From Candidatus Omnitrophota bacterium (lineage in GTDB: Bacteria; Omnitrophota; Gorgyraeia; Zapsychrales; Zapsychraceae), in NCBI GenBank assembly GCA_050250375.1, contig JBFWOS010000001.1, positions 471,090 through 535,089 on the forward strand: DNA of 64,000 bases. The letters run 5' to 3'. The notes under the pieces are model-generated. The model ran no database searches, was not told the DNA's origin, and saw only the letters and a program-made list of their open reading frames with translations. This document shows positions 10,659 to 44,800 of the stretch, in pieces (position 1 is the first letter of the stretch; the number at the start of each line of letters is the position of its first letter). The translations under genes and the position numbers were made by a program.

Positions 10659-10737
10659 TCAACTGCCCGCATATATATTTGGTTTGTGATCAAGAATGTT
10701 TATAACGAAGAAAACTAGGAATGTTACCCGGAACTAT

Positions 10738-11271: not shown

Positions 11272-12190
11272 GATCTTTTATTTTCTGGGTTGATTCACGC
11301 TTGACGAATTTGGTAGCCAGCACCTGTTTATACGGCAATTTTACTTCCCCCCGTGAAATTTGAAACAACTTCTCAGTACCTAACCGGCCCATTTCAAGCA
11401 ATGGCTGGGAAACAGTCGTCAATTTCACGGTACTGCTTTGAATCAGCGGATTATCGTCAAAACCGATAATCGATAATTCTTCGGGTGTTTTAATCCCCAT
11501 CGTCCTAGCCACATCCCATAATTCGAGTGCCATAACATCGGAACCCGCAAAAACGGCCGTCGGACGATTTTTCAAATTTAATAATTTACGGGCGGCCGTA
11601 CGCGCTGGGGTCCTTAAAAAATCACCAAAGGTGATATACGACCTGGGAATCGTTATCCCTTTATTATCCAAAGCCTCGCGAAACCCCTCAAGTCTTTTTA
11701 AACCCGCCTGCGTTGAAACATCCCCCGCGATAGTCGCTATTTGTTTATGCCCCAGTTTTAAAAAATGCTCCACAACATTATAAGCGGCTTTCCAATTGTC
11801 GACGGCCACATAATTGATCGGCTCATCCAGAATATTGTTCAATACCATGCACGGCATGCCTCGTTGAATCGCTTTCTTGACGATAGCAACGTCATTGTCT
11901 ATATCAGCAAATATAATCCCATCAATATAATTCTTATCCATAAGCGTGGAATCCAGCCAGCCGCGATGGTCGGAACGGTCGACAATATGAATGAGATAAT
12001 CGGCACTTAACCGGCTTGCGGAAAGGCTCACCCCGCGGATAATTTCTCCGGCATAGTAAGAATGGAAGATGTCTTCAAAACGGGGTATGACTAATACAAA
12101 TGTGGGTTTTCGTTTTCGACTAATCAACTTCTTGATTTTTTTCTTTTTGTTCGATGATTTGTCTAATTTTTTTAATGGTCCCGGCTTCAA
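11246..12190 (-). CDS. LacI/PurR-type periplasmic-binding-fold (sugar-binding) domain protein; start codon uncertain
   Basis: [50 protein letters not shown] is the typical LacI C-terminal sensor-domain motif. The annotated N-terminus overlaps the sigma-factor gene by about 70 nt and is low-complexity basic instead of an HTH_LacI domain. The ORF track accepts GTG/TTG starts, so the true start is probably internal. Confidence 0.55.
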
Positions 12191-12950: not shown

Positions 12951-15677
12951 TTATTTCTTTTTCTGGTTAGTCGTTTTACTGCTCCCGTTGGCTTCAATAG
13001 CCGCTTGCGCTGCCGCCAGCCGGGCAATCGGAACTCGATACGGCGAACAACTGACATAATTCAAACCGACACGGGCAAAGAATTTGACAGATTCCTGATC
13101 CCCGCCGTGTTCACCGCAAACTCCGCACTTCAGGTCTTTACGAATCGACCGTCCTCTTTCAACACCGGTCTGAACAAGTTGGCCAACGCCTTCTTGATCA
13201 ATCGATGCAAACGGATCATCCTGAAGTATTTTCTTTTGTAAATATTCAGGCAAGAAAGTACCGATATCATCCCGACTGAAACCGAATGTCATTTGCGTCA
13301 AATCATTGGTTCCAAAAGAAAAGAATTCGGCATCTTTAGCCACTTTATCAGCGATCAAAGTCGCACGCGGAATTTCCATCATTGTTCCAACAAGGTATTT
13401 GATCTTTGAATTTTTCATCTTAATAATTTCATCTGCCGTCTTTCGTGTTATTTCCGCCAGCATTTGAAATTCTTTATCTGTTCCGATCAAAGGTATCATA
13501 ATTTCAGGAATAACTTTGACTCCTTTTTGAGCGACATTACAAGCGGCTTCAATAATGGCCGTAACCTGCATCCGGCAAATTTCCGGATAAGTGATCGATA
13601 ATCGGCACCCCCTGTGTCCTAACATAGGATTAAATTCATGCAGTGCCTCGACCTTATGTTTGACTATGGCCGGAGTCGTATTTAATCTCTTTGCCATTTC
13701 TGCCTGTCCGACCTTATCATGCGGTAAGAACTCGTGCAATGGCGGATCTAATAATCGGATGGTGACCGGGTGGCCATCCATGGCTTTAAAAATCCCTTCG
13801 AAATCTTTTCTCTGATAAGGCAATAATTTGGCCAAGGCTTTTTCTCGACCGGCAATGTCTGATGCTAAAATCATTTCCCGAATAGCCCAAATACGGTCCC
13901 CTTCAAAGAACATATGTTCTGTTCGGCACAATCCGATACCCTCAGCCCCTAATTTCCGGGCATTCAGGGAATCCTTTGGCGAATCCGCGTTGGTTCGTAT
14001 GTCCAATTGTCGATATTTATCCGTCCAACTCATAATTTCGGAATACATCTTGCAAATCGGGTGATTGAGGGCTTTCTTGTCTCCATCAACAATGCCTGAA
14101 ACAACAGGTGACGCTGACGTTTCGACATATCCAACGATAATTTCCCCCGTACTACCATCGATGGAGATTTCGTCCCCTTCGCGCACAATACGAGACCCCA
14201 CGGAGATTAGTTTTTTCTTATAATCAATCTGTAAAGCCCCACATCCAACGACACAACACTTTCCCCATCCACGAGCGACAACAGCGGCATGAGATGTCAT
14301 CCCGCCGGTTGAGGTCAGGATTGCCTGCGCGGCCCACATCCCGCTGACATCTTCCGGAGATGTCTCTTTTCGGACAAGGATTACTTTCTCCCCTTTGGCC
14401 GCCCATTTTACCGCTTCATCGGCGGAAAAAACAACCAAGCCACTGGCTGCACCAGGACCTGCTGGGAGACCTTTAGCCAATAATCGATTTTCCGTTAAGG
14501 CGGATTGTTTGGCTTTAGGATTAAAAATCGGGAATAACAGCTGGTTCAATTGATCCCCATGAATTCGTTTTAAAGCCGTTTTTTCATCAATTAATCCTTC
14601 TTTAACCATATCCACTGCGATTTTAATCGCAGCCAGACCTGTCCGTTTACCATTTCTGGTTTGAAGCATAAACAGCTTACCTTCCTGAATGGTAAATTCA
14701 ACGTCCTGCATATCTTTATAATGCCTTTCCAGCATCAACCGAATTTTATTAAGTTCTTCATAAATCACCGGCATCTTTTTCTTAAGTGTGGAAATCGGTT
14801 CTGGCGTCCGAATTCCAGCCACAACGTCTTCACCCTGGGCATTGATCAAATATTCCCCGTAAAATTCATCAGTACCGTCAGCAGGATTGCGGGTAAAGGC
14901 TACTCCTGTACCCGAACTGTCCCCCATATTTCCATAAGCCATGGCCTGTACGTTTACGGCGGTACCTTTTAATCCGCGCAATTTATTAATGTCGCGGTAT
15001 GCAATGGCTCTATCAGCGTTCCAGGAACGGATAACAGCGTTAATAGAATGGGTTAATTGTTCCCGGGCATTTGTCGGAAAATCTTTACCAACATACTTTT
15101 TGTAAACCGCTTTATAGGCGCCTACAACTTCTTTTAACTCAGCGGCCGTTAAATCTGTATCCAACGCTCTGTTATATTTTTTCTTAATGCGGGTTAGCTC
15201 TTCTTCAAAATGATCATGATGGACTTCCATACAAACGTCCCCGAACATGTTGATGAATCTTCGGTAAGAATCCCACGCCATACGTTCATTATTTGTTTTC
15301 TTTGCGAGACCAATGACGGCCTCATCATTAATCCCGAGATTAAGGACTGTATCCATCATGCCGGGCATTGATACCGCTGCCCCGGAACGCACAGAAACCA
15401 AAAGCGGGTTTTCGGCGTCTCCAAACTTTGCATTCATGGCCTTTTCAAGTTTCTTGATATTTGCATCAATTTCTTTATCGAGAGTGTCCGGCTTTTTCTG
15501 ACCATTGGAGTAATAATAATCACAAACCGTCGTCGCAATCGTAAATCCAGGCGGAACAGGAACACCGATTGATGACATTTCCGCCAAATTCGCCCCTTTA
15601 CCACCTAATTCCTCTTTCATACTTGCCTTGCCTTCGGCTGTTCCGTTACCGAAGAAATACACATACTTCTTTGACAT
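12951..15677 (-). CDS. ppdK: Pyruvate, phosphate dikinase
   Basis: 908 aa. N-terminus MSKKYVYFFG.....GGKGANLAEM. Motifs VRSGAAVSMPGMMDTVLNLG, phosphohistidine GGMTSHAAVVARGWGKCCVVGC, and C-terminal GIGLCRTEHMFFEGDRI / FFSFGTNDLTQMTFGFSRDD. Confidence 0.9.
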   Translation of the reverse strand: MSKKYVYFFGNGTAEGKASMKEELGGKGANLAEMSSIGVPVPPGFTIATTVCDYYYSNGQKKPDTLDKEIDANIKKLEKAMNAKFGDAENPLLVSVRSGAAVSMPGMMDTVLNLGINDEAVIGLAKKTNNERMAWDSYRRFINMFGDVCMEVHHDHFEEELTRIKKKYNRALDTDLTAAELKEVVGAYKAVYKKYVGKDFPTNAREQLTHSINAVIRSWNADRAIAYRDINKLRGLKGTAVNVQAMAYGNMGDSSGTGVAFTRNPADGTDEFYGEYLINAQGEDVVAGIRTPEPISTLKKKMPVIYEELNKIRLMLERHYKDMQDVEFTIQEGKLFMLQTRNGKRTGLAAIKIAVDMVKEGLIDEKTALKRIHGDQLNQLLFPIFNPKAKQSALTENRLLAKGLPAGPGAASGLVVFSADEAVKWAAKGEKVILVRKETSPEDVSGMWAAQAILTSTGGMTSHAAVVARGWGKCCVVGCGALQIDYKKKLISVGSRIVREGDEISIDGSTGEIIVGYVETSASPVVSGIVDGDKKALNHPICKMYSEIMSWTDKYRQLDIRTNADSPKDSLNARKLGAEGIGLCRTEHMFFEGDRIWAIREMILASDIAGREKALAKLLPYQRKDFEGIFKAMDGHPVTIRLLDPPLHEFLPHDKVGQAEMAKRLNTTPAIVKHKVEALHEFNPMLGHRGCRLSITYPEICRMQVTAIIEAACNVAQKGVKVIPEIMIPLIGTDKEFQMLAEITRKTADEIIKMKNSKIKYLVGTMMEIPRATLIADKVAKDAEFFSFGTNDLTQMTFGFSRDDIGTFLPEYLQKKILQDDPFASIDQEGVGQLVQTGVERGRSIRKDLKCGVCGEHGGDQESVKFFARVGLNYVSCSPYRVPIARLAAAQAAIEANGSSKTTNQKKK

Positions 15678-15703: not shown

Positions 15704-17011
15704 TTAACTGGATAATTTTTCTTGAATAAATTTTTTTAATTGATCAACCGGGATTCGTTCTTGACGCATGGTATCCCTGTCCCGGACTGTAACTTTCTTG
15801 TCTTCTAAAGACTCCACATCAACCGTAACACAAAAAAACGTTCCGACTTCGTCCTGACGCCGGTAAAGTTTTCCAATAGCGGCTGTGTCATCATAGACAC
15901 AGGTATAATTTCTCTGCAAATCCCCTTTAATAGCGTGGGCCAGATTAACGATATCATCATTTTTCTTAAGTAAGGGCAATACCGCAATCTTTGTCGGGGC
16001 TAAATCCTTATGCAACTTTAGAACGACTCTAGGGCGGCCTTCCACTTCTTCTTCATGATACGCATCAGCTAAAAAAGCCAATGTCGCCCGATCCACACCG
16101 CCAGACGGTTCAATTACATAAGGATAAAATTTATCATTCGTAATCTTATCATGATATCTTAAATCTTTGCCTGATAAATTCGCATGTTGTTTCAGGTCAT
16201 AATCCGTACGATTGGCAATTCCTTCCAATTCAGACCATCCAAACGGAAATTTATATTCCACGTCCGTGCAACCCTTGGCATAATGCGCCAATTCATCATC
16301 AGCGTGCTTTCTGAGCTTTAAGTTTTCTTTTCGAATCCCTAAATTCACATACCATAAAAAACGTTCTTCGATCCACTTCTGGTAACAATCATCCGATTGC
16401 TCAGCCGTCGTAAAATATTCGATCTCCATTTGCTCAAATTCACGCATTCTGAAAACAAAATTACCCGCTGTAATTTCATTACGAAAAGATTTGCCGATCT
16501 GGGCAATACCAAATGGCAGGCGTCGGCTTGAAGAGTCCAGAACATTCTTGAAGTTGACAAATATTCCCTGGGCTGTTTCCGGCCTGAGGTACACCTCAGC
16601 ACTAGTATCTTCAACCGCGCCAAGAAAAGTTTTTAACATCAGATTAAATGCCCTCGGCTCGGTGAACTGCGTTCCAACCTTGGCTTTCTCTTCTTCGCTC
16701 AAATGATCGTAACGATACCTTTTCTTGGTTTTCTTATCGTCAACTAAAAGATCGGTAAAGTTTTCAGCATGGCCGGATGCTTTCCAAGTGTCTGGATGCA
16801 TCAATATGGCGGCGTCCAGTCCAACCATGTCATCCCGGCTATGGACAACTCTCTTCCACCAGGCGTTCTTGACATTACGTTTAAGTTCGGCGCCTAAAGG
16901 ACCATAGTCCCAAGCATTGGCTAGACCACCGTAAATTTCCGATGATTGAAAAATGAAACCACGTCTTTTACAAAGTGAAACTAATTTTTCCATTAAATCA
17001 TTGGTGTGCAT
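15704..17011 (-). CDS. glyQS: Glycine--tRNA ligase (dimeric alpha2 type)
   Basis: MHTNDLMEKLVSLCKRRGFIFQSSEIYGGLANAWDYGPLG... with class II aaRS motifs. About 435 aa, typical of alpha2 GlyRS. Confidence 0.85.
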   Translation of the reverse strand: MHTNDLMEKLVSLCKRRGFIFQSSEIYGGLANAWDYGPLGAELKRNVKNAWWKRVVHSRDDMVGLDAAILMHPDTWKASGHAENFTDLLVDDKKTKKRYRYDHLSEEEKAKVGTQFTEPRAFNLMLKTFLGAVEDTSAEVYLRPETAQGIFVNFKNVLDSSSRRLPFGIAQIGKSFRNEITAGNFVFRMREFEQMEIEYFTTAEQSDDCYQKWIEERFLWYVNLGIRKENLKLRKHADDELAHYAKGCTDVEYKFPFGWSELEGIANRTDYDLKQHANLSGKDLRYHDKITNDKFYPYVIEPSGGVDRATLAFLADAYHEEEVEGRPRVVLKLHKDLAPTKIAVLPLLKKNDDIVNLAHAIKGDLQRNYTCVYDDTAAIGKLYRRQDEVGTFFCVTVDVESLEDKKVTVRDRDTMRQERIPVDQLKKFIQEKLSS

Positions 17012-22102: not shown

Positions 22103-24187
22103 CTACAATTTCATAAATACTCTTGTTTCCATTGATTCAGGGGAAATAACTGAATACATCCCCATACCTTCAATGACTTTAAAACTATTAACAATCGGAA
22201 TTATTACATGATCGAAATATATTTTTCGATTCTCCATATCACTGGAAGCTGCTCCATAAGCCCTAATGGTATCTTCCATATTCATGGCGTCATGAACATT
22301 GGCTTCGAGGTCCCCTTTTATGTCCTGAATAACGGCCTTAATTTCTTTCAATTCAATCTGTTGATCGGAGACGTCCCGTCCTTCTGCTTCCATCTGCGAA
22401 ATCGTCGATTCAAGTTCTGTGAGTTTCTGTTCCTTTTGTTTTAGTTCTCTCTCATCATTTTCAATATCTTTTTGAACCTGCGTCAGGCGCAATTTAGCCC
22501 CATCTTTAAACGCTTCTTTCTTTTGATCATTAGCTGCAACCCAATTATTTGACCACTCCAAAATCGAGGCCATTTTAAAAGCAAGTTCATCAATCTTTAA
22601 AAATTGTACGCCAATATTTTTATTCGTTAAACCTTTGTTTAAAATTTTAAACGATGGATTACTTGTTAACGAGGTTGTCGTTTTCTTTGATGAATCAATA
22701 GAATTCTTTAACAATTCCTTATTAACGGATATAAGCAAATAATCGTTTAGGAAACAGTACCCCGGAGACACATATTCAGCCACCGGAAGATTTATATAAT
22801 TCAAACCTATACCATTATAACTCTCACTTTGGAACATGATCGCAGGCTGGTTTTTTAATAACCCTAATAATTTTTCAACTTTAGCCTGATCTTTAACCTT
22901 TATAAACAAAACTAGTTCCGGAATGGGAAAATTACGGTCAATATGGATATCTTTCATATATCCGCCAATTTCATCTCCAAAGGCCGGGAGAATATCCCCG
23001 TCTATTGTCAAACCGATCATTTGTTCGTATTGTTCAATTTGTTTTGTTACGGAAGGCTGCCCGGGCACACTTGACAATTCTAGTTCTTTCTTCGTCTCCT
23101 CCCAGTAATAACTCAGATCAAAACAATTCCCCCAAGAATACGCAAGAGAATTTGATGGGGTAAAGTTGATACTTTGGTTTTCTTCGTTCTTACAAGCAGA
23201 ATAATACTTTGCCGTAGATTCACTCATACGCTTCAAATCATATAATATATCAAATTTCATTTCAAACAAATCAACCCACGCTAACGAAATATTGACCGAT
23301 TTGAATCCTCTCAGAGAATCAAAAGTTTGTTGCATCTGCCTCTTCATTTCTGCCTGAGCCTCTAATCCTGGCAATTCATCCAATTTTTCCTCTAAACTCA
23401 AAAACAGGGTTTCTATATTGAAGAAAGTTATCATTTCGGGGTTTGCAACGTATTTTTCCTTCGCTAATAAATAATTATTATCTTTCGATAGAGAATTGGC
23501 AGCCCCCTGAAAAATATCAATACTTTTCTGGACTGCGAATTTCCCGACCCCCATAATCATTAAATCCTTTATCCGAGTATATACGAATTTATATGGGACA
23601 CCTTGAATTGACACAATCTTTATTTCTTGGTTTTTATATACTTCGTCCTCAATGGTTACGTTATCACCTAATTGCCCGAATGAACCGGAAATAAATTCTG
23701 CTATCTGTGATTGGGCATCAAGCCTGGTAACCAAAGATAAATTCGAAAAAACTTCGTCCAACAAAAGCTGAAGTCCTTGAGTCCCAGCCTGAGAAAGTGT
23801 CGAAAAATCAAAATCAGGTTCATATATGGCAAATGCGACATCTTTACTAAAGAATTTTCTAAATATTTCATTTTCTTTAGGATTTTCCAACGACTTTTTC
23901 AATATCTGGTAAACCATTGCTTCCTGCTTACTTAAAAGATTATTCTTAAGCAATACATCGAAATCGACAGCACTCAATCTTTTCCAAAAAGATGTGCTTA
24001 AAATCTTATCGATATTTTTCTTTGTATTTCTTAATTCCAAATAGAAAAGCGGTTTCTGGGGCATAATATTTTCTATTTCGAATTGGGATGAAACGAATAA
24101 ATTAACGCCCCCTTTTTTCATAAAGAAATATGTTACACCTCCCGCCATTAATAACACAATTAAAACAATCAAAACTACTTTCTTCAT
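22103..24187 (-). CDS. Hypothetical protein, N-terminal TM anchor, large extracytoplasmic domain, C-terminal coiled coil
   Basis: 694 aa. The N-terminal helix is MKKVVLIVLIVLLMAGGVTYFFM. A heptad-rich stretch reads KDIENDERELKQKEQKLTELESTISQMEAEGRD. It is translationally coupled (ATGA overlap) to tatD upstream. No recognised family. Confidence 0.45.
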   Translation of the reverse strand: MKKVVLIVLIVLLMAGGVTYFFMKKGGVNLFVSSQFEIENIMPQKPLFYLELRNTKKNIDKILSTSFWKRLSAVDFDVLLKNNLLSKQEAMVYQILKKSLENPKENEIFRKFFSKDVAFAIYEPDFDFSTLSQAGTQGLQLLLDEVFSNLSLVTRLDAQSQIAEFISGSFGQLGDNVTIEDEVYKNQEIKIVSIQGVPYKFVYTRIKDLMIMGVGKFAVQKSIDIFQGAANSLSKDNNYLLAKEKYVANPEMITFFNIETLFLSLEEKLDELPGLEAQAEMKRQMQQTFDSLRGFKSVNISLAWVDLFEMKFDILYDLKRMSESTAKYYSACKNEENQSINFTPSNSLAYSWGNCFDLSYYWEETKKELELSSVPGQPSVTKQIEQYEQMIGLTIDGDILPAFGDEIGGYMKDIHIDRNFPIPELVLFIKVKDQAKVEKLLGLLKNQPAIMFQSESYNGIGLNYINLPVAEYVSPGYCFLNDYLLISVNKELLKNSIDSSKKTTTSLTSNPSFKILNKGLTNKNIGVQFLKIDELAFKMASILEWSNNWVAANDQKKEAFKDGAKLRLTQVQKDIENDERELKQKEQKLTELESTISQMEAEGRDVSDQQIELKEIKAVIQDIKGDLEANVHDAMNMEDTIRAYGAASSDMENRKIYFDHVIIPIVNSFKVIEGMGMYSVISPESMETRVFMKL

Positions 24188-25008
24188 AACTCCTCCACAT
24201 TTATCCCAAAAAAACTTTTGGCATTTTGATTAAATTGAATCACGGCATTCTCATGTTTTATTTTTTTTAGTTCACAGTAAGCATCCAACGTTTTAAACAC
24301 ATCTTTAGGCTCAGACTTAAAGCCTACTCCTTTATCTTTATCATTAAAAAAGACCGGACAATCTGTCTCAATCATTGTTTGTTCGATCGGAGCATATTCC
24401 ACGGCCTCCCTCGATTGAGGACTGTAGGCCAGGCTAGGCGTGGTCGAGATATAATATCCTTGCTCCAATATATCTTTAAGGACGTCCAGCGGACCGCTGT
24501 ACCAGTGAAATTCCGCTTTCTTCAAACCAATGCCCTTAACCGTATCAAAACATTCCCGCCAGGCCCCCCTTGAATGGACTACAACCGGCAGATTATATTC
24601 ATGGGCGAGCAAAAGAAAATCTTTGAATACTTTCCTTTGTTCGTCTTTCTTTTCCTGATCTTTACGAACCCATTTATACCAAAAATCCAATCCGATTTCA
24701 CCAATAACAGTCAGTTCAGATATATGCTCTCGGATAAAATCTAAACACGGGTTTAAACTGATGAGACTTGCTTCCGATGGATGCATCCCCATCCCCAAAT
24801 AAATTCTGGGCTTCAAATACTCTTGTTTTATTTTCAGAGAATTCTTGCACGATTCAAGATCCATGCTCACGGCTACAATAGCCTTCACTCCTGATTGATA
24901 CGCGCTGTTTAAAGCCGATTCCAAATTTTCCAGATGATCAAGGTGTGCATGCGTGTCAAAAGTGATCATTCCGTTAACTTTCCAATATAAACGTAACCGG
25001 TCCGTCAT
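24184..25008 (-). CDS. tatD: TatD-family metal-dependent hydrolase/DNase
   Basis: ITFDTHAHLDHLE..., ...EIGLDF...., VVVHSRGAW..., IETDCP: TatD motifs. The true start is probably the internal Met at about 24969. Confidence 0.8.
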   Translation of the reverse strand: MTDRLRLYWKVNGMITFDTHAHLDHLENLESALNSAYQSGVKAIVAVSMDLESCKNSLKIKQEYLKPRIYLGMGMHPSEASLISLNPCLDFIREHISELTVIGEIGLDFWYKWVRKDQEKKDEQRKVFKDFLLLAHEYNLPVVVHSRGAWRECFDTVKGIGLKKAEFHWYSGPLDVLKDILEQGYYISTTPSLAYSPQSREAVEYAPIEQTMIETDCPVFFNDKDKGVGFKSEPKDVFKTLDAYCELKKIKHENAVIQFNQNAKSFFGINVEEL

Positions 25009-25411
25009 TAACCAGCGACACTTCCATCATCGCCCTAAACCGGCCGGATTCTACTTTAACCGTTTGTTGCTTAAGCTGTTTAATAAAATAATCATACAGC
25101 ATTTCTGCTTGGGCAGGTTCCGCAGCCTGATCGAAAGAAGGCCGGCGGCCTTTGCGGCAATCGCCATAAAGCGTAAATTGCGACACGACCAAAAAATCGG
25201 CCGTTATGTCTAAGGCGGACAAATTCATCTTACCTTGAGCGTCTTCAAACATCCTCAATTGACATATTTTCTGAACAAAATAATCAGCCAATTCGGACGA
25301 ATCGTCTTTGGAGATCCCCAGAAAAACCAAAACCCCAACCCCAATAGCCCCGACGATTTCAGAATCTACTTTTACATCTGCCTGTTTTACTCTTTGAAGA
25401 ACTAATTTCAT
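24974..25411 (-). CDS. dtd: D-aminoacyl-tRNA deacylase
   Basis: MKLVLQRVKQADVKVDSEIVGAIGVGVLVFLGISKDD...SQFTLYGDCRKGRRPSF: Dtd signature including SQFTL. Confidence 0.85.
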   Translation of the reverse strand: MKLVLQRVKQADVKVDSEIVGAIGVGVLVFLGISKDDSSELADYFVQKICQLRMFEDAQGKMNLSALDITADFLVVSQFTLYGDCRKGRRPSFDQAAEPAQAEMLYDYFIKQLKQQTVKVESGRFRAMMEVSLVNDGPVTFILES

Positions 25412-25484: not shown

Positions 25485-25513
25485 TTGACAGCACCTTGCT
25501 TTTATGTTAGAAA
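25485..25513 (+). promoter_or_regulatory. Putative sigma-70-type promoter for the helicase gene
   Basis: TTGACA (25485..25490), a 17-nt spacer, then TAGAAA (25508..25513), 8 nt upstream of the ATG at 25521. The ORF-track start at 25485 coincides with the -35 hexamer and is probably spurious. Confidence 0.35.
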
Positions 25514-25520
25514 AACCATC

Positions 25521-27749
25521 ATGAAACTTAAAAAAGTTTTGGAAGACCATGCCTTTTCTCAGGCCGCTTGTGATACATTCCTCAGTTTTGGCATACAAGA
25601 TCTTTACCCTCCCCAATCCCAAGCCATTCAAAAAGGAATCCTGAAAGGAAAAAGCCTGCTCATGGCCGTACCTACTGCTGCGGGCAAGACCCTGATCGCT
25701 GAACTTTGCATGGTCCATTCTATCTTAGAGAATAACGGACGGTGTCTTTATATTGCACCTTTAAAAGCATTGGCGAGTGAGAAATATAATGACTTCAAGA
25801 AAAAATATGAACATCTGGGAATTCGAGCTGGACTGGCTATCGGTGATAACGACACCCCCAACCGCCAGCTTAACCGATATAATATTGTCATTGCCACTGC
25901 CGAAAAGGTGGATTCTCTCATGCGGTCAAAGGCCAAATGGCTGGTTGATGACCTGACGGTCGTCGTTCTGGATGAAATACATTTTATCAATGATGGATCC
26001 AGAGGGCCTACGATGGAAATCCTAACCGCCAGAATCAAAGAATTAAATCCTGACATTCAAATACTTGCGCTCAGCGCAACAATCAGTAATGCCGATGAAA
26101 TGGCTCAGTGGCTTGGGGCAAATCTCGTGACCAGCAAATGGCGTCCGATTCCCTTAAAAGAAGGCGTCTATTTTAACGGGCAGATTGATTTCGGTGATTC
26201 GGCAAACCGTGTTATTACCGAGGAGGCCCCCGATGATGTCAGCAAATTGACACTGGATACTCTACGCGCCAAAGGTCAGGTCCTGATTTTTGTCGGCTCA
26301 AGACGGTCCGCTCAATCCGTCAGCCGTGAAGTCTGTCGTTCCGTAGCAAAAACCCTGAGTGAAGATGAGAAAAAAAAACTTTCCGATTTAGCCAAAAAAA
26401 TCTTAGGGTCTTCTTCCGATTCTACCAAAATCTGCGAAAAGCTCGCAGAGGTTATTAAACATGGCGTCGCTTTTCACCATGCTGGGCTTAAACCCCGGCA
26501 ACGGGAATTGATCGAAGAAAATTTCAAAAGTAATCTCATTAAAGTTATTGGATGCACCCCAACCTTGGCTGCTGGAGTAAACCTCCCTGCGAGACGGGCT
26601 ATTATCCGCGATTGCAAACGATATGAAAGCGGCCTCGGTAGCGCCTATATACCAACTTCCGAATATAAACAATGCGCGGGCCGGGCCGGACGACCTCAAT
26701 ATGATGACTATGGAGAGGCCGTCCTTGTCGCCAAGACCTTGTCCGAATCGGCAACATTATTTGAACGGTATATCCTTGCAGAGCCCGAACCTGTTATTTC
26801 CAAGCTGGCGAATGAATCTGCCTTGCGTATCCATATTCTGTCTTCGATTGCCGGAGGTTACGTCTTTGACGTCAAAGGCATGCTTAACTTTATTACGCAC
26901 ACGTTTTTACATCACCAGAATCTTGAACCCAACCTTTTGGAAATGATCACGGATATCTTTGATTTTCTATACAGAGAACAATTTATTGAAAAAACCGGCG
27001 ACCGTTTTTTTGCAACGCCATTGGGAAGTTTAACCAGCCGGATTTATATAGATCCAATTACGAGCATCCTAATCCGACAAGGAATAAATCAAATCACGGA
27101 CGATAAGCCTTATTCGGATATCGGCATGCTGCACCTCATCACCTGCACTCCTGATTGCCCGACCCTAAAAGGCCTCGGAAAAGAACTTATTGAAGAACTC
27201 GAGCAATTTTCGACCCATTTCCACAATGAATTCCTTTTAACCCCCGAGAACACCTCCATCTTAGATGACTTTTATTTTTATTTATCTTCAATCAAGACTA
27301 CGTGGATGCTGAATCAATGGATGGAGGAAGACCGGGATGATGCCATATGTGACAAATTTAATATCGGGCCAGGAGATATTTACCGGCATGTTGAATCTAC
27401 ACAATGGTTATTATATGCAGCCACAACGATAGCCGACCTGTATTTAAAGAAATCCCTGACTTTCAAAATAGATAACTTGAGAAACCGTATCCGTTACGGA
27501 ATAAAAGAAGACTTGCTTGAGCTTGTCCAACTCAAGGGCATCGGAAGAGTCCGCGCCCGTCATTTATTAAACAACGGGATCATCAAACTCAAAGATCTAC
27601 AATTTGTCTCTACGGAACAATTAGCAGAAATACCGACCATAGGAATCGGGCTGGCCAAAGACATTAAACAGCAATTAATTAAGAATTCCATCAAAAGCCC
27701 CCTCGTTTCAGCAACAAGAAACAGTACTGGTGACTCTTGGGATGAGTGA
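25521..27749 (+). CDS. Hel308/Ski2-like superfamily 2 DNA helicase
   Basis: Motif I AVPTAAGKT, motif II VLDEIH, the SAT-equivalent LSAT, motif VI QCAGRAGRP, and a C-terminal helix-hairpin-helix domain (LVQLKGIGRVRARHLLNNGIIKLKDL) typical of Hel308 domain 5. Overall length is about 740 aa. Confidence 0.75.
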   Translation: MKLKKVLEDHAFSQAACDTFLSFGIQDLYPPQSQAIQKGILKGKSLLMAVPTAAGKTLIAELCMVHSILENNGRCLYIAPLKALASEKYNDFKKKYEHLGIRAGLAIGDNDTPNRQLNRYNIVIATAEKVDSLMRSKAKWLVDDLTVVVLDEIHFINDGSRGPTMEILTARIKELNPDIQILALSATISNADEMAQWLGANLVTSKWRPIPLKEGVYFNGQIDFGDSANRVITEEAPDDVSKLTLDTLRAKGQVLIFVGSRRSAQSVSREVCRSVAKTLSEDEKKKLSDLAKKILGSSSDSTKICEKLAEVIKHGVAFHHAGLKPRQRELIEENFKSNLIKVIGCTPTLAAGVNLPARRAIIRDCKRYESGLGSAYIPTSEYKQCAGRAGRPQYDDYGEAVLVAKTLSESATLFERYILAEPEPVISKLANESALRIHILSSIAGGYVFDVKGMLNFITHTFLHHQNLEPNLLEMITDIFDFLYREQFIEKTGDRFFATPLGSLTSRIYIDPITSILIRQGINQITDDKPYSDIGMLHLITCTPDCPTLKGLGKELIEELEQFSTHFHNEFLLTPENTSILDDFYFYLSSIKTTWMLNQWMEEDRDDAICDKFNIGPGDIYRHVESTQWLLYAATTIADLYLKKSLTFKIDNLRNRIRYGIKEDLLELVQLKGIGRVRARHLLNNGIIKLKDLQFVSTEQLAEIPTIGIGLAKDIKQQLIKNSIKSPLVSATRNSTGDSWDE

Positions 27750-27754
27750 GCGCC

Positions 27755-28486
27755 TTAAAGATATTTTGAAGATTTTACTTTTCTTTCAAGATGATAAACA
27801 AAAAAATTATTAAGAATATATTTTAACTCGGCCTTTACTTTCTTAGTCAGCCCCAAACGCAGACACTCCTCCCATTTGCTTAATTCTACATGAAGTATCG
27901 TCGAGATCGCCCCCTTGGAAATTATCGTAAAACTTGTTTCAATCGTGGGACATTCCTGACAGACAAGGCCGCCCGAAACCATACTAAACCGGACCTTACC
28001 ATCAATTTTTTTATCACATTTGACACAGCTGTCCAGATGAGGGCTAAATCCCGAAAGCTGTAACATTTTAATCTGATAAATATAAATCAGCCTGTCTATA
28101 TCCGTTTCCATCTGGAGTCGTTCAAAAAACCTGTTCATCAGGCTGTACACATCCTGGTTCACCTGTTCTGTCTGCATAATCTTATCAACGAGTTCTAGCG
28201 CATAATTGGCCGCTATGTTTTTCTCATAATTTTCCCTGATCCGAAAATAATACTGTTTAAGGTCACAATGGCTGATCAGGTGCAAATCAGAGTTTCTGTA
28301 ATGATAATACACAAGGTCATTGACGGAATATTTGTCGACGCTGCTTCCGAATTTCTTTGGATCCTTCCTTATACCTTTCATAATACCGGTTATTTTCCCA
28401 TATTCTTTCGTAAAAAAAGTGACAATACGACTAGTCTCTCGATAATCGAATGATTTAAGCACGATGGCTTCAGTTTTTGGGATCAT
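27755..28486 (-). CDS. recO: DNA repair protein RecO
   Basis: An N-terminal OB fold (EAIVLKSFDYRETSRIVTFFTKEYGKITGIMKGIRK) and a C4 zinc motif (CVKCDKK...CQEC). Confidence 0.8.
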   Translation of the reverse strand: MIPKTEAIVLKSFDYRETSRIVTFFTKEYGKITGIMKGIRKDPKKFGSSVDKYSVNDLVYYHYRNSDLHLISHCDLKQYYFRIRENYEKNIAANYALELVDKIMQTEQVNQDVYSLMNRFFERLQMETDIDRLIYIYQIKMLQLSGFSPHLDSCVKCDKKIDGKVRFSMVSGGLVCQECPTIETSFTIISKGAISTILHVELSKWEECLRLGLTKKVKAELKYILNNFFVYHLERKVKSSKYL

Positions 28487-35172: not shown

Positions 35173-38100
35173 TTAAAACTTCAAAGAACAACATTCATTT
35201 CCCACTAATTCTTTAATTTCATTCATTAAATCTTCATTCGGAGCAACAAAAAGGTCTTCTCCGACTAGGATTTCAATACTTTTATTTGACTGGGTGGACA
35301 ACCGCAAATAGACCGGGATCTTTCCCGGAGAACTCGACAATTTATTCTTTAAGTGATCAATGCCATTTTGCTCAAGACTTGATAAATCTAAGTTTATGGA
35401 TTTTATTGATTTATAGACATCCTGAATTTGTCCGATATCGTTGGCTATAATCTTCGCCTCATCATCCCGTAAACTAACCTTTCCTTTTAGAAAAACAACC
35501 TCTCCCTCTCTCAAAAATGGGGCTAGATTGACATAAGCTGATGGAAAGACAACTACTTCGATCGCCCCCTCCGCGTCCTCAAGCCTGATAATCGCCATTC
35601 GTTCATTTGTCTTACGCGTGTTGGTTAGCTTTATTTTACTAATTAACCCCACAATTCTTACCTCTTCTCCATCAACCGCTTTCGTAAGATTTCTTGTCGA
35701 AAAATCTGTAAATTGTTTGATTTCAGTACGATAATGCGACAAAGGATGCCCGCTGACATAATACCCCAACACTTCCTTTTCATATGTTAAAATCTGGTTC
35801 TGCGGCCACTCTTTTATATCCGGCAATTTCTCTGATTCTTTTACAAATCCTGATCCCATATCCATCATGTCAAAAAACGATACTTGCCCGGAAGCCTTTT
35901 CTTTTTGCAGTTTTGCACTGATTTCTAATGTACGGTCCAAAACAGTCATCATCTGCGACCGATAAATCTTAAAATCATCCAAAGCCCCGCATTTAATCAA
36001 ACTTTCTAGAACTTTTCGATTAGTTGTCCTTAAATCGACCCGCTCGCACAGTTCCTGTAAAGACAAAAACTCGCCGTTTTCCCTCTGCTCAACAATCGAA
36101 TCAATGGCGGAAGAACCGACATTTTTAACAGCCAACAAGCCGTACTGAATTGTTTTCTTATCAACGACACTGAACTTCTTTAAACTTCGATTGACATGAG
36201 GCGACAATATTTTAATTCCGTTGGCCTCGCATTCTTTAATATATTCCACCAGCTTGTCTGTATTATTTAATTCACTATTTAGAATTGAGCACATAAACTC
36301 CACTGGATAATTGGCTTTGAGATACGCTGTCCTATACGTAATCAGGGCATACGCAGCCGAATGACTTCGATTAAAACCATAACCCGAGAAATAGTCGATA
36401 AGATCAAATAGTTTATTGGCTTTTTCAGAAGATATCTGACTTGTCCGCTCACAACCTTCCACGAAATCCTTACGCATTTGATCCATAACCGACTGGATCT
36501 TTTTACTCATCGCCCGTCTCAAATGATCAGCCTGAACAAGGGTAAAACCGGCCAAAGCAACTGGAATTTGCATAACCTGCTCTTGATAAACAATAATCCC
36601 ATACGTTGCTTTAAGGATCGGCTCCAGTTTCGGATGATCATAGACAACAGCAATCTCGCCCCGCTTGCGCTTGATAAAATCGTCCAACATACCGCTGCCC
36701 ATCGGCCCTGGACGATAAAGGGCCAGTATGGAGATAAGGTCTTCAAATTCCGAAGGTTTTATTTTCTTAAGCAATTCCCTCATCCCCGCACTTTCCAACT
36801 GAAAAACACCAAAACTTTTGGCCTTGCCCAGCATCTCATAAGTCTTCCGGTCGTCTAATGCGGCTCGATCCATATCTAAATCAATATGATGTCGCTGTTT
36901 CACTAATTTTACGGCTTCATCAATTACCGTCAATGTCCTCAGCCCGAGGAAATCCATTTTTAATAGCCCGATTTTGGCAATACTATTCATCGAATATGCG
37001 GTTGTTATCTGATCGTCACTTGTCTTAAAAAGCGGAACATATTCCGTCAACGGTTTATCAGAGATAACAACACCGGCGGCGTGAATTGAGGCGTGACGGG
37101 TCAACCCCTCCAACACTCTGGCCATTTCATATACATCATTGGACACCTTATCTGATTTACATAATTGATCCAATTGGGGTTCTTTTTTGACGGCTTCCTC
37201 CAAACTGATGCCTAAATCATTTGGAATCAATTTGGCTATCCGGTCAACATCTCCGTAAGAAACACCCATGACACGGCCAACATCTCGAATCGCCGCGCGA
37301 GCCTGCATCGTTCCGAACGTAATAATCTGGGCCACATTGGACTTGCCATACTTCCTGGTCACATATTCAATAACTTCCCCTCGTCGCTCATAACAAAAAT
37401 CAATATCAATATCAGGCATACCGCTCCGGTCTGGATTCAAAAACCGTTCAAAAAGAAGGCCATAATAAAGTGGGTCTAAGTCGGTAATCCCCAACAGGTA
37501 ACTGACCAAACTCCCTGCCGCAGAACCACGACCGGGCCCAACAGGTATATTATTTTCCTTGGCAAAATTGATAAAATCCCAGACAATCAAGAAATAGGCG
37601 ATAAATCCCATTTTCTCAATAATATTCAGCTCCTGCGCTAATCGGCTTCGAACTTCTTCAGAAACAGTCGTATAGCGCCGCCTTAAACCTTCCTGACAAA
37701 GTTGGATTAAATAATCTTTTTGTGATTGTCCGGCAGGAGGTACAAACCGCGGCAAATGGTATGTGTCAAAATTTAATTTTAGGTCGCACTTGTCCGCAAT
37801 CTCCACCGTATTAGAGATCGCTTCCGGGACTTCGCTAAATAAATTCTTCATGGCAATTTGATCTTTAAAATAGAACTCTCCGGACTGAAGTTTCATACGG
37901 CCTGGATCACTTAACATGGACTGGGTTTGAATACATAACAATGCATCATGGGCGTGTGATTGGTGGGGTTCTAAATAATGCACATCATTGGTAGCGACAA
38001 GGGGGATGTTTAATTCTTTGGAAATCTTTACAATCAGCGGGTTTACTTTTTTCTGTATTTCAATCCCATGATCCATCAACTCAAGATAAAAATTACCTTT

Positions 38101-38607
38101 ACCAAATATATTCTGAAAATCATCAGCGGATTTTAAGGCTGCATTGTAGTTTCCCTGCATAAGGTTCCACGCTACCTCGCCCTTTAAACAGGCTGAACTG
38201 CAGATCAGCCCCTGAGAATGTTGAGACAAAATTTCTTTGTCGATGCGCGGATGATAATAAAACCCCTCAAGATAGCCCGCCGAAATCAATTTCATTAAAT
38301 TTCTATATCCGGTGAGATCCTTCGACAACAATAATAAATGGGAGGTGGCTTTATTCTGAGGGGATTTATCCATCCGTGAGCCATTAACGGATAAATAGGC
38401 TTCGACACCTATAATCGGTTTTATTTTGGCTTTATTGGCCGCCAGGTAAAAATCAATCGCTCCAAACATATTGCCGTGATCCGTCATGGCAACGGCCGGC
38501 ATTTGATATTCAACAGCTTTCTCTATTAATTTGTTGATGCGGCAGGTCCCGTCGAGAAGACTGTACTGGGTGTGAACGTGAAGATGGACAAAATCCATAG
38601 ATTTCAT
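35173..38607 (-). CDS. dnaE: DNA polymerase III alpha subunit
   Basis: N-terminal PHP domain FVHLHVHTQYSLLDG. 1144 aa, with the polymerase core, an OB fold and beta-binding regions. Confidence 0.9.
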   Translation of the reverse strand: MKSMDFVHLHVHTQYSLLDGTCRINKLIEKAVEYQMPAVAMTDHGNMFGAIDFYLAANKAKIKPIIGVEAYLSVNGSRMDKSPQNKATSHLLLLSKDLTGYRNLMKLISAGYLEGFYYHPRIDKEILSQHSQGLICSSACLKGEVAWNLMQGNYNAALKSADDFQNIFGKGNFYLELMDHGIEIQKKVNPLIVKISKELNIPLVATNDVHYLEPHQSHAHDALLCIQTQSMLSDPGRMKLQSGEFYFKDQIAMKNLFSEVPEAISNTVEIADKCDLKLNFDTYHLPRFVPPAGQSQKDYLIQLCQEGLRRRYTTVSEEVRSRLAQELNIIEKMGFIAYFLIVWDFINFAKENNIPVGPGRGSAAGSLVSYLLGITDLDPLYYGLLFERFLNPDRSGMPDIDIDFCYERRGEVIEYVTRKYGKSNVAQIITFGTMQARAAIRDVGRVMGVSYGDVDRIAKLIPNDLGISLEEAVKKEPQLDQLCKSDKVSNDVYEMARVLEGLTRHASIHAAGVVISDKPLTEYVPLFKTSDDQITTAYSMNSIAKIGLLKMDFLGLRTLTVIDEAVKLVKQRHHIDLDMDRAALDDRKTYEMLGKAKSFGVFQLESAGMRELLKKIKPSEFEDLISILALYRPGPMGSGMLDDFIKRKRGEIAVVYDHPKLEPILKATYGIIVYQEQVMQIPVALAGFTLVQADHLRRAMSKKIQSVMDQMRKDFVEGCERTSQISSEKANKLFDLIDYFSGYGFNRSHSAAYALITYRTAYLKANYPVEFMCSILNSELNNTDKLVEYIKECEANGIKILSPHVNRSLKKFSVVDKKTIQYGLLAVKNVGSSAIDSIVEQRENGEFLSLQELCERVDLRTTNRKVLESLIKCGALDDFKIYRSQMMTVLDRTLEISAKLQKEKASGQVSFFDMMDMGSGFVKESEKLPDIKEWPQNQILTYEKEVLGYYVSGHPLSHYRTEIKQFTDFSTRNLTKAVDGEEVRIVGLISKIKLTNTRKTNERMAIIRLEDAEGAIEVVVFPSAYVNLAPFLREGEVVFLKGKVSLRDDEAKIIANDIGQIQDVYKSIKSINLDLSSLEQNGIDHLKNKLSSSPGKIPVYLRLSTQSNKSIEILVGEDLFVAPNEDLMNEIKELVGNECCSLKF

Positions 38608-41854: not shown

Positions 41855-41894
41855 ATAGATCAGCTTAGTTCACAATCGAACTAAGCTGATCTAT
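41855..41894. repeat. Perfect 17-bp inverted repeat (ATAGATCAGCTTAGTTC-acaatc-GAACTAAGCTGATCTAT) spanning the stop codon of the giant gene
   Basis: Read directly from the sequence. The giant ORF's TAA stop (41865..41867) lies inside the left arm. A partial copy (AACTAAGCTGGAG) occurs at about 41763. Confidence 0.8.
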
Positions 41895-44800
41895 TTCTCG
41901 TTTTGCTTTCCTATCTCTTGGATTTAGGGAATCGTAACTGATGGTGTTTGATTCATCTTCAGTCGTGTCTGAAAACCCTAACAACAAAGGCAAGCTGTTA
42001 ATCGGGGTTACATTTATTATAACCGGAATTAATCCGTTAATATTTATTGTATTAATCGAACCATTAAATTTTGGAAAAATAAGCGATCCATCCCCTTTTC
42101 TTTCAATCTCAAACAAATTTGGGTCAAGATCAATACCCCCAAGTTCTTTTTTATTCGCTGTCATGGCGGCATCACTCACACCGATGGCTTCTCGATTAAC
42201 ATTTGCTATCGCAGGATAATTGATTCCGGACGGATCGGCTTGATAAGTCAGCGCCACTAACGCCCCGCTTAACTGGTCATCCGGATAAATGTTCCAAAGT
42301 CCTAACAACTTTCCGGCCGCAAGTATTACGTAAGCCCGATCCCTCCCGGCGACTGTCTCCAACGCGCCAAAGGATAGACCGCTTTCAAGGTTTATCTTCC
42401 GTTCTTTAAGCAGAGATTCCCGTAATGCTCTGATGCCTTCCGTAAACTCAGCGCGATGGGCAAGAACATATTCTTTATTTAAACTCAATAGGATTACTTC
42501 TTCCTTCTCCCACTGAAATGACTCACCTTCACCGGGATTTGCTATTGCATCTTCGAGCAACATAACAAAATCCTCGGATAACATGGATTGATCTTGCTTC
42601 ACAGCTTGGTCGTAATCTATCGTTTGAATTACAACATTCCGTTCTGCTGCGGCTCTTTTAATCATTGCAATTGGTCTTCGCAAATTGGGCATTACTTTTT
42701 CTTTTGTGTAAAAATCAATAACTCTGGGATTCTTATATAAATCAGCAGATAAATAAGCTTGCGCAAGTTTTCTTTCATCTAATGTGACAAAAGATAATCC
42801 TTTATCCAAAAACTGTTCTAAGAATAAATAATTTCCTGGCCAAGCGGTATTCATCCCCACTTGAGAATCTATTTCAATGCCCACTCTAGTAATAACATCT
42901 AACGCTTTTTCTATTGTTTCTGGAACTTTTACACTGTTCAGTTGAATTGCGATATTGTACCCATCGTTCATTAATTCCGAAACTACTTCCATTTCCAATT
43001 GAAACAATTGTTTCCACTTTGCATCATTGACCAAAGCATCTAGGCCGGAATACCCTAAAGCAGGGTTAACTTCTTCCGACAAAAAGGCTTCATGGTTGTC
43101 TAAAGCATCTAGATCGTCCGATTGAAGATCAAAAGTTTCATAAACCAGCCTGGATTGCCGGTCCTTTATCTCAGTTAATATTTTCTCCTTTAATAACTTT
43201 TTGAGTGTTTCTTTTCTCGCTTGAGAATTCTCGCCTACAAAATAACTTAACGGATGAACGCCCTGTTCTTTATGAAAATTGGACGAACTGAAGCGCTGGT
43301 TAAAATTGACAGAAATTGTATCCACACTTTCTTCCATAACTTCAATTTCACTGGCAAGATCTACGACATTAACTCTAACATCCTGGCGGTCTCGGAAAAT
43401 TATCCCGCTGTTAAAATCAATGGTTAATAAGTCACCATCTTTTTTTCTACGCTCCATTCTTTTCGTCACCTCAACTTGCGTTCGAATGACGGGCACCCCT
43501 AATTGTTCAATGGCCGCGATATATTTCTCCTGACCATGAAAATGCTCGACCGCCCCATAAATAACTGCTCCTAACCGGCTAAGTTTTTCACGCACACCTT
43601 CATCGGCCACTTGATAATTTACGACCACTTTACCATCAACTACGTGAGATGATTCTTTTAATTCAAATTTTAATTCACCGGTTAACACAACAAAATCCCC
43701 GATATAACTTTTCCCTAATTCGGTCACACCGTTCACCATGTAAACAGGCCGGGTCGCTGCACCTTTTGACACTGTTGATGAAAATTGTTCACCTATGGCA
43801 AAATTTACAGCCCCTTCCTCTAATTCAACCGGGCTGTCCACGACTCCATGTTTTAATGTAGCACTTGCGGATCGTATAATTGACGCCAAAGTCCCCAAAT
43901 AATCTGTCCCGGCGTACCCTCCCGTCTGACCTAACATTATAAGGATTGTTTCCGCCGCTTCCGGATTGATATTAACCAAATTGACTAACGCCTGCCCGCA
44001 GAGCCCGCATTTCGCTTCCGCTTCTTTAGCGATGTTGGCCACATGTCGAATTGACTCGATAACAAATGGATGCGCTTCACTGAATAAGTAACGCATCGCC
44101 GGATTATCACGGTCAGCTCCCAAGGTCAACTGGGTCAAATCATTCGTCCCGAAAGAGAGAAAACTCTTTCGATAAATTGTTTTGCCAAATTCCCGAACAA
44201 ACCAATCCTTTTGGTTCTGTTCATGGTCTTTTAGTACCTGGATAAACTCATCGGCCTGAATGACGTTACTGGGTAATTCCGTCATTTGCCCGACCTCACG
44301 CAAATTAACAACACGTCCCAACTGTTTGCTCATATTACGTTCTTCTTCATCCAGAATATTCATCAATTGGTCCAACTCTCCCGGAGTAGAAACAAACGGA
44401 AAGAAAAACCCTATATTGTTATACCCACGGACAACCTGCCTGAGAATCATCCTGATTTCTTCGCGTAAAATTATTTCATTCTCCGGCTGAAGCAGCCAGC
44501 GAGCTCCGCGTTCACCAATCATAGTGGAGACTTCCGGGACCGGGTCGAAAATTATAGACCCGATCAATTCTCGTGCTTCGTTCTTCTTGAAATCTATACT
44601 CCGATACAAGACAGTATTGTCATCAACATTATTGGCTGCCGCCATGCTGGCAATTGCACCCCCATGAACCGCTTCAAAAAATTCATTATATGATAAATAC
44701 CCCAACATTTGTTTCGTTGCCGCTTCAATCTCGCCGGAATGCTCACGAATTAGTTCGACATCTTTCTGTTCATATTCCCCCAAGCTCTCGAGAAATGCTC

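Follow-up and report, generated by a model that had tools for sequence, protein, structure and literature searches.

A complete archaeal-type Hel308 helicase at a conserved locus of Omnitrophota genomes

The stretch of DNA analysed here (64,000 nucleotides of contig JBFWOS010000001.1, hereafter the window) derives from a Candidatus Omnitrophota bacterium, a member of a bacterial phylum of the Planctomycetes-Verrucomicrobia-Chlamydiae (PVC) group, and carries on its plus strand a gene (25521-27749, +) encoding a helicase of a family known from archaea. The 742-residue product was confirmed to be a full-length Hel308/Hjm helicase, comprising two RecA-like domains, a winged helix, a ratchet domain and a helix-hairpin-helix (HhH) domain. 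Most probably it is a genuine and functional orthologue of archaeal Hel308/Hjm, that is, a superfamily 2 (SF2) ATP-driven 3'-to-5' single-stranded DNA (ssDNA) translocase and helicase, which was obtained from an archaeon related to the Hadarchaeota. Hel308 is said to occur in archaea and metazoans and to be absent from bacteria (PMC7776575), and the preliminary description of this stretch, which held that bacteria generally lack the enzyme, agrees with the reviews on this point.

The four top models in the NCBIfam search were archaeal Hel308 equivalogs, with NF002654 scoring 818 bits over residues 14-725. Sequence searches of the PDB recovered, over the full length of the protein, Hjm of P. 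furiosus (2zj2, E=1.4e-152) and Hel308 of A. fulgidus (2p6r, E=8.4e-142) and S. solfataricus (E=1.7e-139), while Brr2, ASCC3 and POLQ matched the N-terminal half only and Lhr was found at E=1e-14. An AlphaFold model obtained from a 35-sequence alignment (predicted local distance difference test, pLDDT, 86.5; predicted template modelling score, pTM, 0.80) was superimposed by Foldseek on the archaeal structures 2zj8, 2zj5, 2zj2, 2p6r and 2va8 with target-normalised template modelling (TM) scores of 0.92-0.95 and 36-38% identity, the next-best structural matches being POLQ helicase domains at TM ∼0.71-0.81. Metazoan HELQ and the helicase-like domain of POLQ share the fold of the Hel308 superfamily, but at ∼24% identity they are far more distant and have no specific tie to the bacterial clade described below; POLQ is, moreover, fused to a polymerase and oligomeric.

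The domains follow one another along the plus strand in the order known from the archaeal enzymes. RecA-like domain 1 (residues 30-192; 25608-26096; Pfam DEAD, E=1.1e-32) contains motif I (AAGKT, with G55, K56 and T57), motif II (DEIH, 151-154) and motif III (SAT, 185-187), and RecA-like domain 2 (residues 304-392; 26430-26696; Pfam Helicase_C, E=1.3e-11) ends in motif VI, QcaGRAGRP (384-392). In the model, domain 2 also forms a beta-hairpin (strands 366-369 and 373-376) whose Y368 aligns with F351 of the A. fulgidus enzyme in the 2p6r alignment, the hairpin of Hel308 being described as carrying a phenylalanine wedge (PMC5758891). The winged-helix domain 3 (residues ∼398-490; 26712-26990) was delimited by full-chain structural superposition on Hel308/Hjm; here the Pfam model HTH_61 remained below threshold (19.1 bits against a cut-off of 24.3), so that this domain is recognised from the predicted structure. 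Domain 4, the ratchet (residues 534-660; 27120-27500), matches the Pfam family PF21280, 'Archaeal helicase, domain 4' (E=1.6e-29), and its R622 and W629 align with R592 and W599 of A. fulgidus (2p6r), which we take to be the ratchet-helix residues of the 2P6R structure. Domain 5 (residues 666-719; 27516-27677) is an HhH domain (PF14520, HHH_5, 31.3 bits against a cut-off of 27) in which the RxRAR motif, GRVRAR at 675-680, aligns with IGRVRARKL of the A. fulgidus protein. This domain has been described as autoinhibitory and DNA-specific, and the RxRAR motif has been linked to DNA specificity (PMC10946056).

Throughout the 35 bacterial and Hadarchaeota sequences of the alignment, G55, K56, T57, D151, E152, H154, S185, A186, T187, Q384, G387-R391, R622, W629, G675, R676, R678 and R680 are invariant. 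The window protein thus shares with archaeal Hel308/Hjm (2ZJ2/2ZJ8, 2P6R, 2VA8) the five-domain architecture, motifs I-VI, the aromatic residue of the hairpin, the arginine and tryptophan of the ratchet and the RxRAR motif. It differs in its host, a bacterium in which RPA, PCNA and Hjc are not expected, and in a disordered tail with a W-x-[DE] tip that some members of the bacterial clade possess. The Hel308-type assignment made at the outset from a DEIH box, a ratchet and a C-terminal HhH domain is thereby borne out (D151-E152-I153-H154, PF21280, PF14520); the best homologues are not Lhr or RecQ-like helicases, and profile searches support both the ratchet and the HhH domain.

Other helicase families were considered and rejected. 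Mycobacterium Lhr (core structure 5V9X) resembles the window protein as an SF2 3'-5' translocase composed of two RecA domains and a winged helix, but its C-domain bears no relation to the ratchet and HhH domains of Hel308 and it lacks the beta-hairpin wedge (PMC5758891); 5v9x matches the RecA core only (E=1e-14), the C-terminal half being that of Hel308. The RecQ model TIGR00614 scored 35.7 bits against a cut-off of 219.8, and no RQC or HRDC domain was detected in the Pfam scan. A role as an anti-phage defence helicase, of the Hachiman HamB kind or another Ski2-like type, would account for the fact that the best PADLOC matches are HamB models (E=1.6e-52), that the HamB structure 8vx9 is recovered at E=3e-24 and that the neighbouring TatD has a weak QatD-like match. 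This role is nonetheless highly improbable: the likeness to HamB is confined to the shared Ski2-like RecA core and amounts to 177 bits compared with 818 for Hel308, the gene is flanked by dtd and recO and has no HamA/DUF1837 partner, the TatD score (94.6) lies far from the QatD cut-off (230), and the housekeeping context is conserved across the phylum, unlike that of defence islands.

The distribution of this protein in bacteria was traced at several levels. The best 120 database matches are all at least 60% identical to it, and the named ones all come from Omnitrophota/Omnitrophica (one record bearing the product name 'extensin'). With each GTDB species represented by a single genome, 17 bacterial loci were recovered at 55-81% identity, some of them mislabelled Planctomycetales or Elusimicrobia, followed by archaeal loci at no more than 45%. 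An exhaustive HMMER search of 1.84 billion cluster representatives returned 3869 proteins at E<=1e-30. Beyond the window's own clade its top matches are P0122 (50%), P0123 (49%) and P0124 (48%), and the next tier, at 44-46%, belongs to Thorarchaeota, Baldrarchaeota, Ranarchaeia and Methanomassiliicoccales; the named top representatives are all archaeal Hel308, except for one cluster labelled Bipolaricaulota/Acetothermia. P0123 lies in a bacterial context, with a lipid-A acyltransferase gene nearby, recO and a 7TM-HD gene downstream and Omnitrophota as its nearest named relative. P0122, the best non-bacterial match, lies in an archaeal one (GatD, ELP3), and its relatives at 62-85% identity are named Hadarchaeota, Hadesarchaea or MSBL1. 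The Hel308 of these Hadarchaeota is the nearest archaeal relative of the bacterial proteins (∼47-50% identity), and differs from them in its archaeal context and in the motif VI inteins carried by some copies.

Neighbour-joining trees (690-705 trimmed columns, 100-200 bootstraps) grouped the 31 sequences of the window's Omnitrophota clade with a bootstrap of 1.0 and all 68 bacterial sequences, which form four deep subclades, one of them including a metagenome-assembled genome (MAG) of Ratteibacteria, with 0.90. The bacterial clade and Hadarchaeota were united with 0.895 and 0.98 in two trees. Under five distance corrections (p, Poisson, gamma) the support for bacteria plus Hadarchaeota was 0.98-1.0 and that for bacterial monophyly 0.90-1.0, while the monophyly of Hadarchaeota fell to 0.43 under strong rate correction, as expected if the bacterial clade were nested inside Hadarchaeota. 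Also, five alignment columns are exclusive to the bacterial and Hadarchaeota clades and none to bacteria and Asgard archaea. These unrooted trees support a sister relationship between bacterial and Hadarchaeota Hel308 and an ancient archaeal origin of the former, as far as can be judged from sequence comparison. Given that almost all Archaea have Hel308, by vertical inheritance (PMC10946056), the most parsimonious explanation is a single ancient transfer from archaea to bacteria with a Hadarchaeota-related donor.

The opposite course of events, in which Hel308 was ancestral to Bacteria (present in the last universal common ancestor) and lost except in a few candidate phyla, or in which Hadarchaeota obtained their copy from bacteria, is compatible with an unrooted tree, with the occurrence of Hel308 in a further bacterial phylum (Bipolaricaulota/Acetothermia, the P0135 cluster) and with a divergence within the bacterial clade as deep as that within Hadarchaeota. 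We consider it very unlikely, since an ancestral presence would require very many independent losses, and the bacterial clade falls beside a single archaeal phylum (support 0.9-1.0) instead of lying apart from the archaea as a whole. The drop of Hadarchaeota monophyly under stronger rate correction is what nesting of the bacteria would give, and vertical inheritance within Archaea has been reported (PMC10946056). A trivial origin of the signal, by stitching of an archaeal fragment into a bacterial MAG during assembly or binning, can be given practically no weight. Such errors do occur, as in contig L041, but Hel308 shares a single contig with the bacterial genes around it, in the window and likewise in over 20 assemblies that different studies produced independently, contigs of 0.3-2 Mb among them. 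A protein of 100% identity has been annotated on a 1.2-Mb contig of a Candidatus Omnitrophota MAG, and the window itself encodes the bacterial proteins DnaE, UvrB, GroEL, GuaA, PPDK, HisRS, RecO, YbeY, PhoH, Dtd and TatD.

Several further occurrences were recorded in the course of this survey. A Hel308 within the bacterial clade is encoded in a Candidatus Ratteibacteria MAG (L051:7001-9136, P0451), where it is oriented opposite to its neighbours in a clearly bacterial context (holA, lptE, a bamD-like gene, murJ, uvrC) that differs from the Omnitrophota layout. The P0135 cluster (L055:8001-10190) holds a Hel308 of 42% identity, which four NCBI records assign to Bipolaricaulota/Acetothermia. GntR regulator, ABC transporter and OTCase genes lie on its contigs, the lone Hel308 runs against both flanking blocks, and with no firm place in the tree it may be a second, independent transfer. 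A 'Binatia' contig (L041) was rejected as a bacterial carrier, because a CDP-archaeol synthase gene (697-1197) beside its Hel308 fragment marks it as an archaeal contig in a bacterial bin. On a 'Bacteroidales' contig (L020), Hel308 lies beside a Zot-like ATPase and genes of unknown function, all on one strand, in what may be a mobile element. The inteins of Hadarchaeota-type Hel308 are inserted in motif VI after the residue aligned to position 385 of the window protein; P0122 (L049:10001-13579) has a LAGLIDADG intein of 460 residues and P0124 a mini-intein of 150 residues, the bacterial copies being intein-free.

The gene occupies the same place in related genomes. In the window it lies between dtd (24974-25411, -; D-aminoacyl-tRNA deacylase, TIGR00256, 190 bits), which diverges from it and heads the minus-strand block dtd-tatD-DUF3352, and recO (27755-28486, -; TIGR00613, 160 bits), which converges on it as the last gene of the minus-strand block LysM-phoH-HD-ybeY-recO. 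The stop codons of Hel308 and recO are 5 nt apart (27747-27757), and no terminator-like hairpin was found between the two genes. By tblastn of the window neighbours against related loci, the dtd(-)/Hel308(+) pair was detected in 14 loci and recO(-) downstream of Hel308 in nine (L001-5, L010, L012-14), so that the gene's position between dtd and recO, against its neighbours, is as first described and close relatives carry it at the same locus. The layout TatD-dtd-(ApbA) / Hel308 / recO-ybeY-7TM-HD-phoH-LysM also characterises the deep subclades, being kept in L052/L053 (∼49% identity) and in L054 and L050 (∼47-49%); recO is downstream in L050 and L052-54, and the dtd(-)/Hel308(+) pair is kept in L052. 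Taken together, synteny holds at 17 loci of GTDB species and in deep subclades of 46-50% identity. In these subclades Hel308 and recO almost touch or overlap at their 3' ends (by 54 nt in L052:9146-9199), which suggests that the arrangement of the window, with 5 nt between the stop codons, is ancestral.

Its reverse orientation might alternatively be attributed to a recently acquired foreign gene or island. Hel308 runs opposite to 42 of the 45 plausible genes of the window, the other two plus-strand genes being small ones at 58628-59973, and its codon-usage distance (0.100) is the highest among window genes of more than 400 residues. Even so, this explanation is barely tenable: the same locus and orientation are found in relatives down to ∼47% protein identity, the bacterial copies constitute one old clade, no mobile-element genes flank Hel308 according to the Pfam and NCBIfam scans, and GC and GC content at third codon positions (GC3) are inside the range of the window (GC 0.443, z=+1.4; GC3 0.447, rank 4 of 45). 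The raised codon distance is explained by strand-specific skew, the GC3 skew of Hel308 being -0.25 compared with ∼+0.2 in the minus-strand genes; its third positions have thus equilibrated to their own strand, the product of long exposure to the mutational bias of the opposite strand. The steady drop of the cumulative GC skew along the window suggests a leading minus strand, in which case replication and the transcription of Hel308 would meet head-on. The comparison of codon usage and GC with flanking genes, suggested in the preliminary description as a check on horizontal acquisition, therefore yielded no compositional anomaly. The horizontal acquisition considered there is upheld by the phylogeny, which supports an archaeal origin, with the qualification that the transfer was ancient rather than recent and that Hadarchaeota are the nearest archaeal relatives.

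Compared with six orthologues, the proportion of synonymous differences (pS) is 0.76-0.86 and that of nonsynonymous differences (pN) 0.12-0.27, figures reported in place of dN/dS given that synonymous sites are saturated; the combination indicates strong purifying selection. Spread over deep Omnitrophota subclades, kept synteny and a lack of compositional anomaly together argue that the reverse orientation is not the scar of a recent insertion. The acquisition of Hel308 thus appears ancient and followed by vertical inheritance, the gene being, by all sequence indications, a fixed and host-adapted part of the genome. According to the scenario that we favour, an ancestor of Omnitrophota (and of a Ratteibacteria lineage) would have taken Hel308 from a Hadarchaeota-related archaeon. 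The gene would have entered, in reverse, where the dtd-tatD block meets the end of the phoH-HD-ybeY-recO block, and vertical descent under purifying selection would have kept it at that locus ever since. A cultured representative of Omnitrophota preys on archaea (10.1101/2023.11.21.568195), and predation is a plausible route for such a transfer.

In the closest relatives, Hel308 is followed on the same strand by one or two ORFs (open reading frames) of 534-545 residues whose start overlaps the Hel308 stop (L001:8227-9852 and 9934-11556; L002:8217-9821; L003:8217-9821; L005:8220-9857; all +). These were rejected as a co-transcribed partner, as they have no Pfam or PADLOC match and occur neither in the window nor in the deep subclades; this absence marks them as later insertions.

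The regulatory signals of the gene match those of some other genes of the window. The ORF listed at 25485-27749 (+) was confirmed as 754 codons from a TTG, but that TTG is the first triplet of a TTGACA box and not a start codon. The coding start is the in-frame ATG at 25521, which gives 742 residues and a stop, and from which the N-terminus MKLKKVLEDH... aligns with the N-termini of all orthologues. Hel308 is hence the lone large plus-strand gene of the window, as had been noted, with a start that lies further downstream than was listed. Upstream of the ATG, a -35 box (TTGACA, 25485-25490, +) is separated by 17 nt from the hexamer TAGAAA (25508-25513) of an extended -10 element (TGT-TAGAAA, 25505-25513, +), which in turn ends 7 nt before the ATG. 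Both boxes are conserved among orthologues: of 17 upstream regions of orthologues, 13 have a TGnTAnAAn element whose end is 5-11 nt from the ATG (shuffle mean 0.08), and a TTGAC box lies 17-19 nt upstream of the -10 in 10 of the 17 (shuffle mean 0.005), the remaining spacer sequence having diverged. The same layout is present at the deep-subclade loci L052 and L054. Statistics on the single sequence are not remarkable (five hexamer-pair matches in the window against 2.5 expected), and a sigma-70 scan of the window gave chance-level numbers under a rule, T at position 6 of the -10, that misses this site.

No Shine-Dalgarno motif was found upstream of the Hel308 ATG. A -10 element (TGnTAnAAT or TATAAT) 6-8 nt before the ATG, likewise without a Shine-Dalgarno motif, also occurs at hisS, dnaE and two other window genes (15704-17011, -; 35173-38607, -; 58628-59446, +; 62836-63438, -), which suggests that leaderless mRNAs are common in the host organism. 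The arrangement implies a leaderless or near-leaderless Hel308 mRNA, with the transcription start predicted from the promoter position. The near-leaderless TTGACA-N17-TAGAAA promoter initially reported is therefore exact and conserved, although it is not special to this gene; the shared spacing points to leaderless expression as a habit of the host, to whose signals Hel308 would be fully adapted. Transcription would accordingly start from a sigma-70-type extended -10 promoter of its own and yield a leaderless mRNA, presumably the usual mode of the host for genes at the head of operons. Convergent transcription of Hel308 and recO could, in addition, have mutual antisense effects.

Forks and D-loops are the preferred substrates of archaeal Hel308, a 3'-5' helicase which can also displace proteins and has been implicated in restarting stalled forks and repairing crosslinks (PMC7776575); it acts mainly on DNA (PMC10946056). 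The activity, substrate and pathway of the bacterial enzyme are inferred by analogy: since every residue in contact with ATP or with the tracking strand is conserved, the same chemistry is assigned to it. The protein would load on ssDNA at stalled forks, gaps or D-loops and draw the 3' tail through the ring that its RecA, winged-helix and ratchet domains make up. The beta-hairpin (Y368) would split the duplex, and the unwinding of lagging strands or recombination intermediates would allow repair or restart to proceed. An E. coli genetic assay cited in PMC8301817 yielded one and the same phenotype for Hel308 and RecQ. This RecQ-like behaviour, together with the long-standing adjacency to recO, suggests a RecQ-like role upstream of RecFOR and RecA, in which the enzyme would feed the RecFOR/RecA pathway. 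RecQ, the helicase of the RecFOR pathway, belongs to a different family, and the proposed likeness is one of function, as a 3'-5' helicase at gaps and stalled forks.

An action on RNA, as a Ski2-like helicase cooperating with the adjacent RNA-maturation cluster (the YbeY RNase, PhoH and the 7TM-HD protein), has to be weighed against this assignment. In its favour, Hel308 borders the end of the phoH-HD-ybeY-recO block in every Omnitrophota subclade examined, RNA helicases are numerous in the Ski2-like superfamily, and the archaeal sister group ASH-Ski2 acts on RNA (PMC10946056). An RNA helicase is unlikely all the same, as the protein falls on the Hel308 branch and not with ASH-Ski2 or Brr2 and retains domain 5 with the RxRAR motif that is tied to DNA specificity (PMC10946056). 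Hel308 is also convergent with the cluster, and so not co-transcribed with it, and its immediate neighbour, recO, is a DNA-repair gene.

Some points weigh against a functional Hel308 orthologue of Hadarchaeota-related origin acting in DNA repair. The NF002654 score of 818 bits is below the curated cut-off of 887, and NF040935 reaches 584 against 1200, which places the sequence outside the archaeal training range of NF002654; an NCBIfam equivalog cut-off is, for its part, an annotation threshold and not a biological feature, and these models were trained on archaeal sequences. The same sub-threshold scores account for the generic public annotation 'DEAD/DEAH box helicase'. The trees are based on simple distances, are unrooted and lack a eukaryotic or ASH-Ski2 outgroup, and their deeper archaeal nodes are unresolved. 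The known partners RPA, PCNA and Hjc are archaeal and not bacterial, so that the details of the pathway must be other than in archaea. Finally, recO is convergent with Hel308 rather than co-transcribed, and its adjacency could be a historical accident.

The C-terminal tail (residues 723-742; 27687-27746, +) is predicted to be disordered (pLDDT <50) and ends in ...GDSWDE. A tryptophan at position -2 or -3 from the C-terminus, giving a W-x-[DE] tip, was found in 24 of the 118 proteins of Omnitrophota type but in none of the 116 of Hadarchaeota type, and one may speculate that this tail is a bacterial adaptation. A more far-reaching proposal, which we regard as doubtful, would have Hel308 adopted phylum-wide as the standard helicase for stalled forks and gap repair, maybe replacing RecQ/RecG and feeding RecFOR (which would explain the adjacency to recO), with the acidic W-x-[D/E] tail coupling part of the clade to bacterial partners such as SSB, with capture from Hadarchaeota-like archaea via predation and with antisense cross-regulation between Hel308 and recO.

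Other features of the window touch less directly on the helicase. Rfam and tRNA scans gave no match near the Hel308 locus. The distal gene of the dtd-tatD block encodes a DUF3352 protein of 694 residues (22103-24187, -), whose coiled-coil segment gives weak Rad50-/SMC-like matches and which is 23-56% identical in relatives. Near the left end of the window, a protein of 1043 residues (190-3321, -) has no Pfam match and a prepilin-like N-terminus (MKLKHLITRAGQQTIEYVVLFAG); it contains 16.5% cysteine and many repeated units rich in C, G, N, T and P, and its gene is unusual in codon composition, with a GC content of 0.615 at second codon positions (GC2) and a GC3 of 0.27. A protein of 2800 residues (41865-50267, -) carries PPDK-like domains (PPDK_N, mobile and PEP-binding) over residues ∼995-2093, and a normal-sized PPDK is encoded at 12951-15677 (-). 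Very long proteins are a known trait of Omnitrophota (10.1101/2023.11.21.568195).

Literature searches turned up no earlier description of a bacterial Hel308, full-text searches revealed no paper that connects the enzyme to Omnitrophica, Omnitrophota, Ratteibacteria, Bipolaricaulota or Acetothermia, and two recent Omnitrophota genome papers make no mention of it, the gene being hidden in public annotation under its generic helicase name. The results extend a known family to new hosts and entail no new mechanism. They indicate that a complete Hel308 is a stable, syntenic part of Omnitrophota genomes under purifying selection, and that it occurs also in MAGs labelled Ratteibacteria and Bipolaricaulota. 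For the biology of the family, these bacteria constitute a natural experiment in which an archaeal replication-repair helicase would operate without RPA, PCNA and Hjc, and for that of the phylum, which includes predators of archaea, the gene would represent a datable archaea-to-bacteria transfer from a Hadarchaeota-like donor.

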